Shown here piece after piece: positions 397 through 7,930 of a DNA stretch of 17,949 nt; within the stretch, counting starts at the first letter, position 1; every line of letters begins with the position of its first letter. Source of the DNA: an uncultured archaeon (GTDB lineage Archaea; Thermoplasmatota; Penumbrarchaeia; JASLWR01); the NCBI GenBank assembly GCA_964342815.1, contig CAYFHS010000049.1, forward strand, positions 1-17,949, written 5' to 3'. The position numbers and the translations under genes are program-made. The notes beneath the pieces were generated by a model. It was not told where the DNA came from. It saw nothing but the letters and a program-made list of their open reading frames with translations, and ran no database searches.

Positions 397-3204
397 TCAG
401 GTCAGATTCCCTTTATTATCTTCTTTCTGTTCCTCTAAAAACCAGCAAGTTCTTTTTTCAATATTTTCCGACCTTACCTTACCGAGATCGAGAAGATTGT
501 TCAGGTGATATCGAACGGTACGGGATTCCCTGTCGAGCTTCACCGCAAGCTCCTTTATCTCGATACCAGACTGTTGTTTTACTATCTGAATTATTTCCTT
601 TTGTACCGGAGTTAGAGGTTTTTGCTGGTCTCTCATCCACGTGGGGTAATAAAATTTGAAGTTTCCCTGCTGTTTTGCCTTGATGAGATTTGCATTCGTG
701 AGGCAACGTAAGTGATGCGTTAGAGTACCCTGAGAGACCTTCATGTGTTTTTTGATCTTCCTGAAATGCTTCCCTGGATTATGATTGATATACGCGTAAA
801 GATTGTGCCTTATATCGTTGTCGAGAATCTGTTTCCGTTTTATCCGGGTATAAGCCATCAGGCAGGCAAGTATTACCAAAGAAATCAATATGACTACTGA
901 AAAGATTGTGAAAATACTCGTCCCTTCCTGCTTCCACCTTTTTGGATCACGTGGAAAGGCATCATCCTCATTAGGTACTCCGTCACCATCCCAGTCAAGA
1001 GGCGTTGAAAGAGGGTCATAAGGGTCGCTGCCCTGTTCAAGCTCATAGGTGTCGTTGTAAGTGTCGTTATCGGTATCCTTTTCTCCGTCGGAAGTGGATG
1101 TTTCGTCGTCTTCCGGTCCGCTTCCGGGGTATGATAACGGATTAAATGGATCGCTTCCCTGTTCTAGTTCATAAGTGTCGTTGAAGCTGTCATTGTCTGA
1201 GTCGATTTCTTCCAGTGGGGATGAATCAAGTACCGTGACGTTCAGAGTATCGAATCCCCGGTTCTCGGCTTCATCGTAGACGGTCATTGTAACAGAATAA
1301 TTACCGGGAATATCAAACTTGAAAAAGGGTAACGATGACATGATTATCGAATGGAACAGCATCTGATTCGCATCGTCATATTTAAAAGTCCAGGTCCAAT
1401 TCCAGCATCCGATGTTATCGGAACTGTCCTGGTGGAAGAAGAATTCTACCGTATCGGATTGGTTGATGGTTATGTCAGGGCCTGCGTAGGCGAAGGGGGG
1501 TGTGCTGTCGAGAACGGTGACGTTCAAGGTGTCAGTGTCCCAGTTAGCGTCAGCATCTGAGACTTTCAGTGTTACAATATATTTTTCGACCTTATTGAAT
1601 ATATATTCCGTTGTGATTCCATATCGATATATCTCCTTTTGCCCGTTGAAAAAACTCCACGTGTAATTGACTATGCCTACATTGTCAAATGACTCATTTG
1701 CATTGAAATAGGCATTTTCATGTTGATCTATAATGATGTCCGAACCCGCTTCTGCTATCGGAAAAACATTATCCTTAACAATAACAAATATCCTATCACT
1801 TGTTCCTTGTCCACATTCATTTTCTACAGTCAAAGTGACAATGTATTTTCCAAAAATATGAAAAGCGAAAATTTGTTCAGGTCCATATAAAAACTGTTCT
1901 TTCCCATCATAAGTGAAATTCCAAGCATATTTGACAATATATTCATGACCAACACACGCTGAACTATTAAAAATCACATTTTCATGTTGAATTACAGTTA
2001 TATCGGGACCTGCATTGGCAAGGGGTATGGGTATACGATTTGGATTGGTCATCGGAAAGATATCTTTCGATCCAGCCGAACCCCCTATTACATACGGTTG
2101 ATCCACAATCCCATCTATATTTATGTCCGGCCCTGTCCAATCAGACCAATAATTACCAATTAGATCTTTATTCCATTTGTTTTTAGTTCCATTATCAACT
2201 GCTTGGACATTACCATAATTATTATCAATAAAAATGTTGTTAAAAATTATGTTATCATGAGTATTGTTATGGAGCATTATGCCATAGTTGATGTTAGACC
2301 TGCATTTGTTTTTTGTAAAGACGTTGGCATGACTCGAATGGCTTATACCATTGTATAAGGAAATGCCATAATTATTTAGAGAACATGAATTATTGATGAT
2401 TTGGTTATTTGCAGAGTTCGATGAAGAGATTCCTTCACCATCATTCAAATCACATTTATTATTAGTAATTATATTAAGATCGGAATAACTAAATGAAATA
2501 CCCTCAAATTTATTTGAATTGCATGTATTTTTAGAAATAATGTTGTCGTTTGAGTAATAAAATGATATTCCATTCCTGTAATTATTGTTACAAGTATTAT
2601 TGCTGATATGGTTATTGTGAGAATACTGTACGTAGATGCTTTCATCATTATTGGATAGTATATTGTTCTCGATAGTATTGTTATTAGAATATTGAAGGTA
2701 GATACCAAGACCCTCATGAAGGGAGACATTCGTCACATTATTTTTCTCAATTCGGCAATGGTTTGCATCCTTCAATAGAATGCCATACATTATTGCACTG
2801 CCTCTTGAGTAAGATTTTACCGAAATCCTAAATCCAATGAATTTTACCCTGTTTGCATTAATCAAAACAGCAACATTTTCTCCCAGATAAGGAGAGGGAT
2901 AATTAATCACTGTATTCTGATAATCTGTGCTTATTAAATCTAATTTTTTACTGATGGTAATATTCTCATAATATGACCCCGCCTCAACATAAATCGTATC
3001 CCCATCACTGGCGTTGTCTATCGCCCACTGAATATGTGTGTAATCCCCGCCTCCCGACGCATTCACAAATATTGTGCTACCTCTTACTTCGTCACCATAT
3101 TCCCCTTGGCCAGGCCACCGTTTGCTCTCTGTTAATCGAGGAACCGTTATAATCATTAAAAATACAATAACGATCGTTAAACATCTTTGCATGATCCGGC
3201 CCAT
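397..3204 (-). CDS. Membrane-anchored NosD/CASH beta-helix + 3 PKD + acidic TSP3-like repeats + TM + tandem winged-HTH protein (COG3398-like C-terminus)
   Basis: N-terminal hydrophobic signal; VNASGGGDYTHIQWAIDNA start of the beta-helix; Asn-rich parallel beta-helix repeats; three PxAxAGxD...YxWxF...GxYxVTLxV PKD repeats; DSDNDSFNDTYELEQGSDP repeats; TM IFTIFSVVILISLVILACLMAY; two wHTH units (NPGKHFRKIKKHMKVSQGTLTHHL and SGIEIKELAVKLDRESRTVRYHL). The start could be Met at 3192. Confidence 0.85.
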   Translation of the reverse strand: MGRIMQRCLTIVIVFLMIITVPRLTESKRWPGQGEYGDEVRGSTIFVNASGGGDYTHIQWAIDNASDGDTIYVEAGSYYENITISKKLDLISTDYQNTVINYPSPYLGENVAVLINANRVKFIGFRISVKSYSRGSAIMYGILLKDANHCRIEKNNVTNVSLHEGLGIYLQYSNNNTIENNILSNNDESIYVQYSHNNHISNNTCNNNYRNGISFYYSNDNIISKNTCNSNKFEGISFSYSDLNIITNNKCDLNDGEGISSSNSANNQIINNSCSLNNYGISLYNGISHSSHANVFTKNKCRSNINYGIMLHNNTHDNIIFNNIFIDNNYGNVQAVDNGTKNKWNKDLIGNYWSDWTGPDINIDGIVDQPYVIGGSAGSKDIFPMTNPNRIPIPLANAGPDITVIQHENVIFNSSACVGHEYIVKYAWNFTYDGKEQFLYGPEQIFAFHIFGKYIVTLTVENECGQGTSDRIFVIVKDNVFPIAEAGSDIIIDQHENAYFNANESFDNVGIVNYTWSFFNGQKEIYRYGITTEYIFNKVEKYIVTLKVSDADANWDTDTLNVTVLDSTPPFAYAGPDITINQSDTVEFFFHQDSSDNIGCWNWTWTFKYDDANQMLFHSIIMSSLPFFKFDIPGNYSVTMTVYDEAENRGFDTLNVTVLDSSPLEEIDSDNDSFNDTYELEQGSDPFNPLSYPGSGPEDDETSTSDGEKDTDNDTYNDTYELEQGSDPYDPLSTPLDWDGDGVPNEDDAFPRDPKRWKQEGTSIFTIFSVVILISLVILACLMAYTRIKRKQILDNDIRHNLYAYINHNPGKHFRKIKKHMKVSQGTLTHHLRCLTNANLIKAKQQGNFKFYYPTWMRDQQKPLTPVQKEIIQIVKQQSGIEIKELAVKLDRESRTVRYHLNNLLDLGKVRSENIEKRTCWFLEEQKEDNKGNLT
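1003..1205 (-). repeat. Intragenic duplicated acidic Ca-binding-like (TSP3-type) module
   Basis: DSDNDSFNDTYELEQGSDPFNPLS and DTDNDTYNDTYELEQGSDPYDPLS; the DNA copies are diverged mostly at synonymous sites. Confidence 0.8.
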
Positions 3205-3344
3205 GAGACATCACTCTAGTCAGATACGCGGTCCTATCCAAGTTTAAAATACACATAACTCATATTTAACCTCATTGGTACAAGATTAACCAATGAGTTA
3301 ATAACAACGGGCTTGATTAGAAAGTTAAATGTAGGAACGGATAA

Positions 3345-4733
3345 TCACTCTCGAAATACTCGAATAGCTCTCAAAACCCTGTAAAGCTTGCTGGATCGTA
3401 TCTTTTCTAGATCTACGTAAAACTCCCTCATTATCTGCAGCTTTTCCTCAAGTTTTTCTTTTTCCGTTTTCAGTTTGTTAATTTCCTTCAGCCGCTTTCT
3501 AACTTCCTTATCCGTATCGTCCTTCTCCGCTTCCTGCATTATTTTCTTTATTGCAAGGTCCATGAATCGATCCCTTTTCAACCGCAGCGCCTTCAATAGA
3601 GATTTCTGTTTTTTTCGCAGCTCGGGGGTGCATCCTGCACAGTATTTTGCCGGAAGACCCACCTTTGCATTATCTCGCAGCAGCGAAAAGAAATGTCCGT
3701 ACCAGATATCCTCGAGACTTTGCTTCGCGAGCCCTTCCGGCGACAAGTAATCTTTTCCTCTCTCCTCCTCATAGGTGGAAACGCTGCAGGGACCGAACAC
3801 TCCCGACGGGCGGATCATCATTGTAAGGAATGGCTCTAAACAGTATACATTCTTTGGGTCCAGCTGTCCTATGATATCGTCCTTTCCTGCTTCATCCTTT
3901 TTTTTCCCATCATCAAGCGTCTTGGGTGCTTGCGGTTGAGGTTCCTCAGTTGGCTCTAAAGGCCCGATTTCGATTCCCATGCGAAGTGATCTTGATAATG
4001 AACGTAAGCGTGGCATATCATTTACGAACTTTATAATCTGTTCTTCCCCAATGATCGAATCCTCATTCGTATCATCGGAAAGAGAAAATCCCGCTTTTAT
4101 GATTAGCGTGCTTACACCCTTTCTTTTGGCAAATTTCAGCATGCTTCCCACTTCATCCAGGTTGCGCGCGATCAAGGGCATGTATATGTCGATGACGGGC
4201 AAAGTCATACCCAATTCATCTTTCATGTCCTGAAACAACTCCAATCCTTCCACAACCCGCGAGAACGCCCCCTTGGTGGAAACGATCTCATCATTCTTTT
4301 CCATTTCGGGAGAAGGAAGGCATATCACTATGCGGTCCCAGGCGATTTCCACCAAATTGCTGATAATGTCCGGTGTGAACATCGTTCCATTCGTATGCAG
4401 TTCGCCGTAATAGAGATTATTCTTTATGAACCTCATGGAATCTATCAGAGAGTCCCTCATTAACATGGGTTCACCCCCACCGGAAATGATCCATTCCTTC
4501 ACCCCCATTTTGCATCCTTCTTTTACTATCTTATCCAGTACTTCCCTTTCGATATTTCCATGAGGTCCCGCCTCTTTGTTTTCTCCTTCCCAGCTCCATA
4601 TGGATTTCAAATTGCTCTTGTCCGTAGGATGCAGCACGATCCTGAACGGCGGGCGGGGAATGCCAAGATCCCAGTACAACACTCTTTTCAATTCGTTCTT
4701 CAAGGAAGATATGCCTCCTTTTATTCGATTCAT
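3345..4733 (-). CDS. Radical SAM/SPASM(Twitch)-fold protein lacking the CxxxCxxC cysteines (SxxxSxxS), with C-terminal coiled coil
   Basis: PFRIVLHPTDKSNLKSIWSW sits where the radical SAM motif belongs; ISGGGEPML (GGEP motif); LHTNGT; auxiliary-domain Cys C298 (YCLEPF), C316 (GVFGPC), C365/C368 (YCAGC); C-terminal heptad-rich helix. Confidence 0.85.
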   Translation of the reverse strand: MNRIKGGISSLKNELKRVLYWDLGIPRPPFRIVLHPTDKSNLKSIWSWEGENKEAGPHGNIEREVLDKIVKEGCKMGVKEWIISGGGEPMLMRDSLIDSMRFIKNNLYYGELHTNGTMFTPDIISNLVEIAWDRIVICLPSPEMEKNDEIVSTKGAFSRVVEGLELFQDMKDELGMTLPVIDIYMPLIARNLDEVGSMLKFAKRKGVSTLIIKAGFSLSDDTNEDSIIGEEQIIKFVNDMPRLRSLSRSLRMGIEIGPLEPTEEPQPQAPKTLDDGKKKDEAGKDDIIGQLDPKNVYCLEPFLTMMIRPSGVFGPCSVSTYEEERGKDYLSPEGLAKQSLEDIWYGHFFSLLRDNAKVGLPAKYCAGCTPELRKKQKSLLKALRLKRDRFMDLAIKKIMQEAEKDDTDKEVRKRLKEINKLKTEKEKLEEKLQIMREFYVDLEKIRSSKLYRVLRAIRVFRE

Positions 4734-4753
4734 AAGGTAATAGGTCGATTTTG

Positions 4754-4765
4754 TTATATATTCTC
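4754..4765 (-). promoter_or_regulatory. Putative BRE/TATA box for a leaderless radical SAM-like transcript
   Basis: Minus strand GAGAA-TATATAA; the TATA element starts 27 nt before the ATG at 4733 and there is no SD-like sequence. Confidence 0.5.
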
Positions 4766-4951
4766 AATGGTACGAAATTCGCAGCTTGACAATCTTCGAC
4801 AAATCAGAGATTTGCCTGGTCCCATTTCATTCTGCATAATCAATATTCATCTTATTTGTCAAGTAGCGAAGCATCTATCGATACCTCCGATTTGTCAGTT
4901 GGTGACATGTTAAACCGTTACTTGGCAAGTAGTTACCTGTCATAGTTCGCG

Positions 4952-5164
4952 TTATCGTCCGAATGGGTAACATCCCCGATACTGGGACATTCCCTCTAGG
5001 AATGTATCTATCCCGTCCAACACGTCGGTAGAAATGAGCCGCATCAGAGCCGTTTGGGCCAGCATAATCTGACCGCACACTTGCGGGCGGGGATAGAAAC
5101 CTCCGTAGGCACACATGCCGAGGATGCAGTTGAATTTCTGATTCATCGTAGCGTAAGCGGGCAT
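4952..5164 (-). CDS. Possible small Cys-containing hypothetical protein (70 aa); alternatively part of a structured RNA
   Basis: Open frame with C/G-ending codons (ttc aac tgc atc ctc ggc) in a GC-rich island. No SD, a stop codon directly upstream, and no recognised family. Confidence 0.3.
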   Translation of the reverse strand: MPAYATMNQKFNCILGMCAYGGFYPRPQVCGQIMLAQTALMRLISTDVLDGIDTFLEGMSQYRGCYPFGR

Positions 5165-5390
5165 TTAGGATGTTTCAATATGAAATATGCGTTTGAAAAC
5201 GTAGATATCGCCGAATGAATTTGTAATGCCGTTCTAGTATTAATCCGATTTTGTCCTTATCATATTTTTCTTCTTTTGCTAACCTTGTGCGGCTGCCTAA
5301 ATGGTATTTGGAGAAAGTACGTATGTTTAGTTATTAAAAGACCTTTTAACCCAAATTTATTTTACTTTTATTGGCCATTACAGAATTTAC

Positions 5391-6338
5391 ATGATTGAGA
5401 CTTATGGACTTACGAAGGTTTTCAAGAATTTCCGGCGTCCACCAGTGACCGCTGTAGATAATATCGATTACAGTGTTGAAGAAGGCACTATCTTTGGTTA
5501 CTTGGGGCCGAACGGAGCGGGAAAGACAACCACCATAAAGATGATCTCCACTATCCTGCCACCAACTTCCGGTACGGCGAGAGTATGTGGGTTCGATATA
5601 ATCAAACAACCTCTTGAAGTAAAAAAACACATCGGTTTGATGCCGGAGAATTCAGGTTTCTACGGAAATTTAACCGGTATGAATGTGTTGATGTATTATG
5701 GAGAATTCTATGGCAAACCAAAAAAAGTGCGTCGGGCAAGGGCTCTGGAACTGCTGGAAGATATTGGTCTGGGAGACGCAATTTACCGTAAGGTAAAGAA
5801 TTATTCCCACGGTATGCGTAAACGGCTTACTTTCTGTGTAGCACTATTCAACGAGCCGGAACTTTTAATATTGGATGAACCGACATCAGGTCTAGACCCG
5901 CAGGGGACCTACGAGTTCAGAAACAGAATAAAGAGCTTGAGAAATCAAGGCATTACAATTTTTATTTCATCTCATCTTCTAACGGAAGTGGAACAGATAT
6001 GTGACATGGTGGGAATCATACACAAGGGCAAAATTGTTGATTCGGGATCCATTGATTATCTGCAAAAAAAGATCGAAGGCAGTTCCACGGAAATGACAGT
6101 TGTATTTCAACTTGATAATATTACTGAAGACTTGCTATCATCGTTTGGAGAGAGGGATGGTATTAAGGCTGCTCAGAAGGTGGGTAATGAATATTTTTTC
6201 AGAGTGGATTCAAAAAAACGTATTCCGGAAGTTAACGATGAACTTGTAAAGAATGGAGTGGGTGTTTATTCCATAAACATTAAACACGTGTCCTTGGAAG
6301 ACATTTATCTTAATCTCACTGGTGGGGGTGGGAATTGA
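5391..6338 (+). CDS. ABC-2 type exporter ATP-binding subunit (CcmA/DrrA-like)
   Basis: Walker A GPNGAGKTT, signature YSHGM, Walker B LILDEP, H-loop ISSH, C-terminal SLEDIYLNLT typical of ABC-2 ATPases. Confidence 0.95.
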   Translation: MIETYGLTKVFKNFRRPPVTAVDNIDYSVEEGTIFGYLGPNGAGKTTTIKMISTILPPTSGTARVCGFDIIKQPLEVKKHIGLMPENSGFYGNLTGMNVLMYYGEFYGKPKKVRRARALELLEDIGLGDAIYRKVKNYSHGMRKRLTFCVALFNEPELLILDEPTSGLDPQGTYEFRNRIKSLRNQGITIFISSHLLTEVEQICDMVGIIHKGKIVDSGSIDYLQKKIEGSSTEMTVVFQLDNITEDLLSSFGERDGIKAAQKVGNEYFFRVDSKKRIPEVNDELVKNGVGVYSINIKHVSLEDIYLNLTGGGGN

Positions 6339-7930
6339 TGAGTGAAAAAGTAGCCGGATCCACTTCAATAAATGACACGGAAACCAAGAGTGCCGGTAGG
6401 AGTTCCTATATAAGGCATCTTTTTCGGGGGATCAAGGTTATAGCTAAATGGGAATTCATTCAAAACCTGAAAACTGTACGAATGCTCGTATTGGTCATTA
6501 TTTTTTCGCTTGTGATGCTGGGCGGCTCATACGGATTAACGACTTTATTCACACAGTCACCGGCGGATATATCCCTAAAAATTCCCGAAGATATCATCAA
6601 AGAGGCCATGGGTAACGTGTTTATATCCGCACATGTGCTTGACCTGGATGAAGACGGATATGCCAATGACGTTAAGATCTTCACTTATCGAGGGAATGGT
6701 GAAACTGAAAAAAACCGGGAATTTCGGGCTTACGAGCAATTCGGAATAAAACTTCCTAACGGTTTAAACCAAACTAACTCTGATGGTATTGCAATATATT
6801 ACGACGTTCCTGAGGGTAAATATCAAGCTGAACTTATCGAAAGAACTGCCAGTACAACTTTCACAATTGAAGAGCATAATCTACCTGTACAACAGTTATC
6901 AATAAATGTCGTCCCAGTTTTCGATCTCGAATTGGGTGAAATTTCATTAGGAGGGGAAACCAACCTGAATGACCTGATCGGTGATTACCGACAGGTCGGC
7001 GTAATCGTCCACGTTGTCGACGCCAAGGGAAATCTTTTGGATAATACTACGGTTTTGGTGAATGATGAACAATCCGGTATGACAAATTATACAGGTACAT
7101 TGCCAGTGGATATGGAACCGGGAACATACTCCATCGTTGCATCCCATTCCGGATCATATTCCGGTAAAGAGGAAGTCATAATCTTCAAAACCAGGGTAAT
7201 AAAAGAAGAAGGATCCTTTGCCGGTCTTCCAGTCAATCTTGGCCCCGATTTTGTGATAATAATTGTCGCCTCGATAGCAGGATTCATCATTTCGCTTTCA
7301 GCCATTGTACTTTCCTTTGACGCAATATCGAGAGAAAAAGCCGACAAGGCTCTCGATATATTGCTTACAAAACCCTTTCCAAGAGAATCGGTTATACTGG
7401 GAAAATACCTTGGTATTACCGGAGCCATGACCGCACCATTCGTAGTAGTGATGTTCGGAGCCATTTGGATCATGTCTCTTGTATCCGATAAGTGGCCTAG
7501 TCCGTCGGTGATAGTTACTTTTATTGGATTTATGATACTTTTAATAGCGATTTACATTGCAATCGAGATATTCGTTTCCATACTTGCCAAAACCACCGGC
7601 ACTGCAATCTTGGCGGGAATAGGTGTCTGGGTTCTTCTGAATATGCTGTGGGGTGTACTCGGTCTTGGTATCTCCGAGCTGTTCGGTCTCGAGACAGTTT
7701 CTGTGACCAATTACATGTCTCTTCTCAATCCCTCCGACCTTTTCCTCGTATGCCTTTCCATCGTGTCCACCGATGCTCTAATCGCCAGTATCGGAGCGGA
7801 AGAGCTGAAGAATTCCATAAACATTGAATTCGCTTTCGCCGAATGGGTTTTCTTCTTAGCCTTTGGGCTCTGGTTTGTAGTATCTCTTGGTGGTGCAATC
7901 CTTTTATTCAAGAAAAAAGAGGATCTATGA
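6338..7930 (+). CDS. ABC-2 type permease with large extracytoplasmic beta-sandwich insert
   Basis: TGATG overlap with the ATPase stop puts the ATG at 6338 rather than the TTG at 6335. First TM (MLVLVIIFSLVMLGGSYG), about 240-aa soluble insert, then FDAISREKADKALDILLTKPFPRESVILGKYLG and several TM helices. Confidence 0.9.
   Translation: MSEKVAGSTSINDTETKSAGRSSYIRHLFRGIKVIAKWEFIQNLKTVRMLVLVIIFSLVMLGGSYGLTTLFTQSPADISLKIPEDIIKEAMGNVFISAHVLDLDEDGYANDVKIFTYRGNGETEKNREFRAYEQFGIKLPNGLNQTNSDGIAIYYDVPEGKYQAELIERTASTTFTIEEHNLPVQQLSINVVPVFDLELGEISLGGETNLNDLIGDYRQVGVIVHVVDAKGNLLDNTTVLVNDEQSGMTNYTGTLPVDMEPGTYSIVASHSGSYSGKEEVIIFKTRVIKEEGSFAGLPVNLGPDFVIIIVASIAGFIISLSAIVLSFDAISREKADKALDILLTKPFPRESVILGKYLGITGAMTAPFVVVMFGAIWIMSLVSDKWPSPSVIVTFIGFMILLIAIYIAIEIFVSILAKTTGTAILAGIGVWVLLNMLWGVLGLGISELFGLETVSVTNYMSLLNPSDLFLVCLSIVSTDALIASIGAEELKNSINIEFAFAEWVFFLAFGLWFVVSLGGAILLFKKKEDL

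Follow-up and report, generated by a model that had tools for sequence, protein, structure and literature searches.

A lineage-restricted Thermoplasmatota protein descended from a radical SAM/twitch enzyme that has probably lost radical SAM chemistry

We analysed a 17,949-nucleotide stretch of DNA from an uncultured archaeon of the phylum Thermoplasmatota (contig CAYFHS010000049.1, assembly GCA_964342815.1; henceforth the window), focusing on a minus-strand gene at 3345-4733 whose product has the fold seen in radical S-adenosylmethionine (SAM) enzymes and carries serine at each of the three positions where those enzymes use cysteine to bind the SAM-cleaving [4Fe-4S] cluster. The overall explanation that we consider best, with a probability of about 0.72, is that this pseudo-radical-SAM (pseudo-rSAM) gene encodes a soluble, non-radical Fe-S protein that descended from a radical SAM/twitch enzyme and has been kept by selection. 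Taken on its own, the claim that radical SAM chemistry has gone and that the protein is kept for another role is very probable. We propose that the ancestor of one Thermoplasmatota family lost the first two cysteines of the CxxxCxxC motif together with the ribose-motif serine and the SAM-anchoring arginine, and that the third cysteine drifted away later, in the branch that holds the window. Given these losses, the protein would, to judge from its sequence, be unable to hold the SAM-cleaving cluster or to bind SAM in the canonical way, and would generate no 5'-deoxyadenosyl radical.

The former cluster loop and the SAM-binding site

A word-indexed search returned eight full-length relatives that share the architecture and are 38-100% identical (henceforth the clade), the next matches being canonical radical SAM proteins at 26-28%. 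Residues are numbered throughout in the 462-amino-acid (aa) frame of a first-pass annotation of the window. The former CxxxCxxC loop (4593-4616, minus strand) now reads S40-x3-S44-x2-S47, and a codon read-out confirmed the serines that this annotation had placed there: codon 40 is AGC (4616-4614), codon 44 is TCC (4604-4602) and codon 47 is AGC (4595-4593), each a single base away from TGC. The loop and its flanks, PPFRIVLHPTDK-S-NLK-S-IW-S-W, match the canonical PPVRIELHPTNR-C-NLK-C-xF-C-W column for column, and the three cluster columns are cysteine in 135 out of 135 canonical relatives.

The radical SAM fold, which had likewise been proposed, was recovered by three approaches. Specifically, the Pfam family Radical_SAM (PF04055) matched residues 57-201 with 40.2 bits (cut-off 29.5; E 5e-10), an AlphaFold2 model built from 11 sequences had, over the barrel at about residues 60-210, a predicted local distance difference test score (pLDDT) above 90, and Foldseek matched this model to SuiB, DesII, viperin, SkfB and anSME (E about 1e-9). 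The partial (beta/alpha)6 barrel spans residues 30-257 (3963-4646, minus strand). The protein therefore has the fold that defines the superfamily and, with S40, S44 and S47, lacks its ligand motif. No displaced or substitute conserved cysteine triad was found in the clade, where the only invariant cysteines are C298, C316, C365 and C368; this bears out the suggestion of a pseudoenzyme as far as radical SAM chemistry is concerned.

Full-family matches in NCBIfam all fell below their cut-offs, the best being TIGR04317 (tungsten cofactor oxidoreductase radical SAM maturase) with 75.6 bits against the 380 needed for membership. A phmmer search of the PDB with the whole protein gave only spurious matches to PPR repeats and coiled coils. 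PDB matches to the barrel and the twitch region needed profiles, with which SkfB (E 8.5e-18) was the best match for the barrel.

We then compared the eight clade members with the 135 canonical relatives over all columns at least 75% conserved among the latter. The changes include a remodelled SAM-contact stretch (4281-4322, minus strand), where the window protein has C138, P140 and V151. Column 138 (Ser in 99% of canonical relatives) is Cys or Gln in the clade, column 140 (Asp in 76%) is Pro, Leu, Phe, Ala or Val, and column 151 (Arg in 81%) is Val, Ser, Met, Ile or Leu. In a profile alignment column 138 falls on Ser211 of SkfB, which belongs to the ribose motif, and column 151 on Arg223, which positions the SAM carboxylate and ribose (PMC6231123). 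Other columns changed in the clade are 186 (Val to Pro), 255 (Asn to mostly Glu) and 302 (Trp to Phe or Tyr). Retained columns include W21, G24 and P29 in the N-terminal segment, T114-N-G-T117 (TNGT), K171, P179 and N191, as well as the GGE motif, G85-G-G87-E88-P89 (4467-4481, minus strand). G85, G87, E88 and P89 of this motif do not vary in the clade and reach at least 91% conservation among canonical relatives; in the profile alignment E88 falls on E162 in the GGE motif of SkfB.

Thus, of the three SAM-binding motifs, GGE is kept, while the ribose serine and the arginine are changed throughout the clade, and the canonical SAM site appears to have been dismantled beyond its cluster ligands. 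Since both the ribose-motif serine (138) and the carboxylate- and ribose-binding arginine (151) are lost, a SAM sensor, one of the roles offered in the first-pass annotation, is unlikely.

Distribution, selection and history of the clade

The identical protein was recorded on 7 contigs. The closest different homologue, 81% identical, comes from an independent assembly and was found with the same sequence in two collections (L004 and L012), one of them a Thermoplasmatota metagenome-assembled genome from the eastern tropical North Pacific. Relatives occur in samples from oxygen-minimum zones and sediments. Its codons at the three sites are AGC/TCC/AGT, i.e., the same serine triad with a synonymous difference, which indirectly, though in our judgement effectively, refutes an assembly error. 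A profile built from the eight proteins and run against 1.84 billion representative sequences recovered the clade as just two clusters at 50% identity plus one fragment; scores dropped from 695 to 318 bits beyond it, and among the top 150 matches all proteins outside the clade carried CxxxCxxC. In a tree of 143 proteins the eight members were monophyletic on a long stem, with a Shimodaira-Hasegawa-like approximate likelihood ratio (SH-aLRT) support of 100. Genome searches found the gene once in each of the four genomes of one GTDB family (f1; three genera) and in none of 397 other genomes sampled from the phylum Thermoplasmatota.

The ratio of nonsynonymous to synonymous substitution rates (dN/dS) was 0.086 between the window and L004 (dN 0.114, dS 1.31) and 0.127 between two further clade loci, L005 and L011. 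By region, wherever dS was unsaturated, it was at most 0.12 in the N-terminal helix, barrel, linker, twitch domain and coiled coil; for comparison, it was 0.052 in the neighbouring ABC ATPase gene and 0.107 in the winged helix-turn-helix (wHTH) tail of the downstream neighbour. The gene is under strong purifying selection and is not decaying. The first-pass annotation had held that the rest of the protein shows no decay, and these ratios, together with the single copy in four genomes, agree with it; its description of the protein as catalytically dead as a radical SAM enzyme is likewise supported, given a cysteine triad lost without substitute from a gene under purifying selection. That we are instead looking at an artefact, with errors at three codons, or at a pseudogene inactivated recently, has a negligible probability: besides the triad shared with the independent assembly, the first serine is present in eight out of eight clade members from several samples, dN/dS lies at 0.09-0.13 and the frames are intact in 4 genomes.

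Comparison within the clade did not support the idea that three separate isosteric changes had each been selected. All eight members have Ser at position 40, encoded by AGY in all five loci with DNA although dS is saturated between genera. Position 44 varies freely (S/S/A/T/K/G/E/I), and position 47 (S/S/Y/Y/C/C/C/C) is still Cys in four of the eight, which makes the SxxxSxxS pattern, among the sequences collected, peculiar to the genus of the window. Because only S40 is conserved among the three positions, the history that they suggest is one old and still constrained change of the first cysteine to serine, loss of constraint at the second, and loss of a vestigial third cysteine in the branch of the window, by drift rather than by selection. 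The vestigial third cysteine in four members argues for loss from a canonical ancestor rather than for a primitive state.

The invariance of S40, in AGY codons despite the saturated dS, could alternatively mean that the SAM cluster is still bound, by non-cysteine ligands such as S40 or by ligands that a partner supplies, and that radical chemistry persists. Ligation of an Fe-S cluster by serine is known in LipA (cited in PMC6231123), and the retained GGE motif would also fit. By contrast, positions 44 and 47 hold no consistent ligand-capable residue (Ala, Lys, Gly, Glu, Ile and Tyr occur), and the SAM-contact serine and arginine have been lost as well. We regard persisting radical chemistry as very improbable.

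Twitch domain, linker, tail and known relatives

The twitch domain (3618-3845, minus strand) contains C298, C316, C365 and C368 (codons 3842-3840, 3788-3786, 3641-3639 and 3632-3630), which never vary in the clade and reach 99-100% conservation among canonical relatives. It was matched by NCBIfam N_Twi_rSAM (residues 295-379) and, at 20.8 bits and thus under the cut-off of 21.5, by Pfam SPASM (residues 298-369). As a single sequence the twitch region alone had no match in the PDB. A profile of residues 285-385, built from 15 clade and canonical sequences, had BtrN as its sole PDB match (E 5e-6), and all four cysteines, in the pattern C-x17/18-C ... C-x2-C, aligned with cysteines of BtrN. In the BtrN twitch domain four cysteines fully ligate an auxiliary [4Fe-4S] cluster (PMC6231123). 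The C-terminal domain of the window protein has just four cysteines and none for a second SPASM cluster. It is thus of the twitch type, with four BtrN-aligned cysteines, and not of the seven-cysteine, two-cluster SPASM type (PF13186), which is defined by CX9-15GX4C-gap-CX2CX5CX3C-gap-C with cysteines for the second cluster. The intact four-cysteine auxiliary domain of the first-pass annotation therefore stands, corrected to a single-cluster twitch domain rather than a full SPASM domain, and its cofactor is most likely a single, fully ligated [4Fe-4S] cluster, as in BtrN.

Between barrel and twitch domain lies an acidic linker rich in Pro and Lys (residues 258-296; 3846-3962, minus strand). It is variable within the clade (dN/dS 0.115), has a pLDDT below 50 at 262-296 and is, on the model, probably disordered; SkfB likewise has a disordered linker between its barrel and C-terminal domain (PMC6231123). 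The protein ends in a helical coiled-coil tail (373-445) and a basic terminal helix, IRSSKLYRVLRAIRVFRE (446-462), together at 3348-3617 on the minus strand, which AlphaFold2 models as helices 370-404, 409-447 and 449-456. Clade invariants in the tail are R414, L415, I418, L421, L432, R436, L442, E443, S447, R458 and E462, and its dN/dS of 0.038 is the lowest among the regions that differ between the window and L004. Both the acidic, Pro-containing insert and the coiled-coil tail had been described before and are indeed present, but the tail is not special to the dead form: canonical relatives (P0027, P0032, P0041, P0045, P0048, P0060, P0119 and P0122) possess a comparable helical tail that closes with S-x2-3-[YF]-[KR].

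The nearest canonical relatives (e.g., P0010, P0011, P0032 and P0027), both archaeal and bacterial, are 26-28% identical over barrel and twitch domain. They share with the window protein the N-terminal W..G...PP helix, GGE, TNGT, the four twitch cysteines and, in some, the coiled-coil tail, and differ from it in the CxxxCxxC motif and in the prevalent ribose-motif serine and arginine. None of the canonical relatives scanned reached an NCBIfam equivalog cut-off. Their genes adjoin those of glycosyltransferases, a Wzt_C ATPase, carbamoyltransferases and aldo-keto reductases, the P0032 type being next to a GT4 gene, and a structural neighbour found in the Atlas is a glycosyltransferase-radical SAM fusion; from these gene clusters and the fusion we infer a glycan-modifying ancestry. 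Some canonical relatives (loci L032, on contig k141_823937, L030 and L025) belong to arrays in which as many as nine radical SAM/SPASM genes follow one another, accompanied by genes for carbamoyltransferase, GDSL lipase, glycosyltransferase, Wzt_C and aldo-keto reductase. Such large arrays appear uncharacterised and may modify glycans.

Among characterised proteins, the twitch archetype BtrN (butirosin 2-deoxy-scyllo-inosamine dehydrogenase; PDB 4M7S/4M7T) has auxiliary-cluster cysteines that match all four of the window protein; unlike the latter, it is an active radical enzyme with an intact SAM cluster and has no coiled-coil tail. SkfB, a radical SAM/twitch sactisynthase (PDB 6EFN) and our reference for the SAM-binding motifs, keeps CxxxCxxC, Ser211, Arg223 and an N-terminal RRE domain, all four of which are absent from the window protein. 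NCBIfam also catalogues a halobacterial family, TIGR04347 ('pseudo-SAM/SPASM protein'), to which we liken the window protein, by family label alone, as one of the same kind. The window protein scored 41.2 bits against its cut-off of 525 (41.9 in the genome search), no match in the genome exceeded that cut-off, and the protein differs in belonging to a Thermoplasmatota lineage, in having a twitch rather than a SPASM domain and in its coiled-coil tail. Our literature search on radical SAM pseudoenzymes, TIGR04347 and pseudo-SAM found no paper describing such families. With TIGR04347, pseudo-SAM/SPASM families are already catalogued, and the window protein, which lies outside that family, is an independent, lineage-restricted addition to a small set.

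By itself the clade opens no long-standing question. It does provide a natural dismantling series, in which the first two cysteines and two SAM contacts would have gone first and the third cysteine later, with the auxiliary domain intact, and it is possibly a convenient system for studying what a twitch cluster does alone. Pipelines that annotate radical SAM proteins would mislabel the gene as an active enzyme; one database source labels the 81%-identical homologue 'MoaA/NifB/PqqE/SkfB family radical SAM enzyme'.

Gene neighbourhood, possible roles and gene boundaries

Upstream of the pseudo-rSAM gene, and divergent from it, are genes for an ABC ATPase (ABC_tran) and a 531-aa ABC2_membrane_2 permease, a pair that adjoins the gene in the window and at L004, L005 and L011. 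Downstream, in the window, at L004 and at L005/L006, lies a gene for a PKD/beta-helix protein with an HTH tail. This neighbourhood of ABC-2 exporter and surface protein is found in two of the three genera.

Four parts of the protein are still under selection: the barrel (with GGE, TNGT and the N-terminal helix), the four-cysteine twitch site, the probably disordered linker and the coiled-coil tail with its basic helix. We propose tentatively, and with distinctly less confidence than in the loss of radical chemistry, a more specific mechanism, in which the remodelled barrel beside the twitch cluster would bind a ligand or a partner non-catalytically and the tail would let the protein oligomerise or dock at the membrane, where it would serve cell-envelope export or assembly together with the divergent ABC-2 exporter and the downstream surface protein.

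Several observations weigh against this proposal or against the descent on which it builds. The most divergent clade member (P0009, genus g2) has neither neighbour and lies in different surroundings, and a search of its 91%-complete genome at E <= 1e-20 yielded no ABC-2 permease orthologue. Separate promoters seem to serve the pseudo-rSAM gene and the HTH gene downstream of it. With GGE still invariant, some SAM-like or nucleotide ligand may yet bind. Finally, the choice of loss over a primitive state rests on parsimony and the vestigial third cysteine, the tree being unrooted. A complex prediction that combined the pseudo-rSAM protein with the ABC ATPase and the wHTH tail scored 0.00, which we take as evidence neither way.

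Alternatively, the protein may still be an enzyme, one in which the remodelled barrel runs a new, non-radical reaction on an ancestral sugar-like or nucleotide-like substrate and the twitch cluster has a redox or structural part. Such a reading would account for purifying selection on the barrel as strong as that on neighbouring genes, for several positions having switched to new clade-invariant residues (such as C138, P186, E255 and M118) rather than having been freed, and for the retention of GGE, TNGT, K171 and N191. Yet the Pfam and NCBIfam scans revealed no catalytic motif known from another enzyme class, and binding and catalysis are inseparable from sequence alone. We consider an enzyme of this kind rather unlikely. 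Unlikely too, in our estimate, is a cytoplasmic sensor of redox state, oxygen or a ligand that would act through the twitch cluster and control the ABC-2 exporter or the double-wHTH surface protein through the coiled-coil tail; if true, a dead radical SAM enzyme would have been turned into a module for Fe-S signalling.

Another explanation posits an active radical SAM enzyme, encoded elsewhere, which the protein would serve as a non-catalytic partner or as the subunit for electron transfer. The arrays in which canonical relatives occur would suit such a partnership, as would the 33 Radical_SAM matches in the genome and a fully ligated twitch cluster, which suits electron transfer (PMC6231123). 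The first-pass annotation had named such a subunit of an active paralogue. But the window holds no other radical SAM gene, none stands beside any clade member examined, and the closest paralogues that the genome encodes reach just 27-31% identity over partial matches, which makes this partnership quite improbable.

A close canonical paralogue in the same genome was sought and not found, the best match of P0010 there being the pseudo-rSAM gene itself. The nearest genome paralogue (G000:C32:30799-31377; locus L016, open reading frame (ORF) 976-2559, minus strand) encodes 527 aa with a canonical CPLECTFC motif; about 100 residues are inserted between its cluster loop and its GGE-type strand.

The downstream gene (397-3204, minus strand) encodes a 935-aa protein that starts with an N-terminal signal or anchor and further comprises a NosD-like beta-helix, three PKD domains, a single transmembrane (TM) segment (about 759-789) and a tail made of a pair of winged-helix domains on the cytoplasmic side (HTH_HVO_0163_N and HTH_24). 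The protein resembles a DNA-binding surface protein tethered to the membrane. The paralogous family of its wHTH tail is large: the genome has 26 matches to the tail, of which about a dozen fall in ORFs 590-1480 aa long. The permease (6335-7930, plus strand) has about 220 residues between TM1 and TM2, including a weak CarboxypepD_reg-like match. Together, ABC ATPase, permease and NosD-like beta-helix protein resemble a NosDFY-type module.

The intergenic gap between the pseudo-rSAM and ABC ATPase genes (4734-5390) measures 657 bp, compared with 150-410 bp in relatives. Roughly 300 bp of it have no counterpart in L004, and it holds just short, unconserved ORFs; a small conserved gene in the gap was rejected on these grounds. 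Scans of the window gave zero matches in Rfam and chance-level results for sigma-70 promoters and terminators, whose models are unsuited to archaea.

As to the gene itself, the 462-codon frame at 3345-4733 (minus strand) is open throughout, as first annotated, though the ATG at 4733 is probably not its start. L004 has no equivalent ATG and has a one-base gap in that stretch, and the homologues in databases all start at the equivalent of K12 (the P0002 entry has 452 aa). The likelier start is therefore a TTG at 4703, preceded by a Shine-Dalgarno-like GGAGG (4718-4714, minus strand), both kept in L004, giving a coding sequence at 3345-4703 (minus strand) and a protein of probably 452 aa. Further upstream, a stretch at 4754-4771 (minus strand), shared by the window and L004 amid otherwise diverged intergenic DNA, consists of ACCATTGAG (4771-4763) followed by a TATA-like AATATATAA (4762-4754) and presumably acts as the promoter.

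A perfect 9+9 palindrome, CTCATTGGT-N9-ACCAATGAG, lies at 3271-3297, between the stop of the pseudo-rSAM gene (3345) and the start of the 935-aa gene (3204), directly 5' of a TATA-like GTTAAATAT. The 4.35-Mb genome has no second copy, and L004 conserves the palindrome with a compensatory change on both arms (CTGATTGG...CCAATCAG); the ACCATTGAG element just 5' of the pseudo-rSAM TATA box is a similar half-site. The palindrome may function as an operator, to which perhaps the wHTH protein itself binds, or fold into an RNA hairpin.

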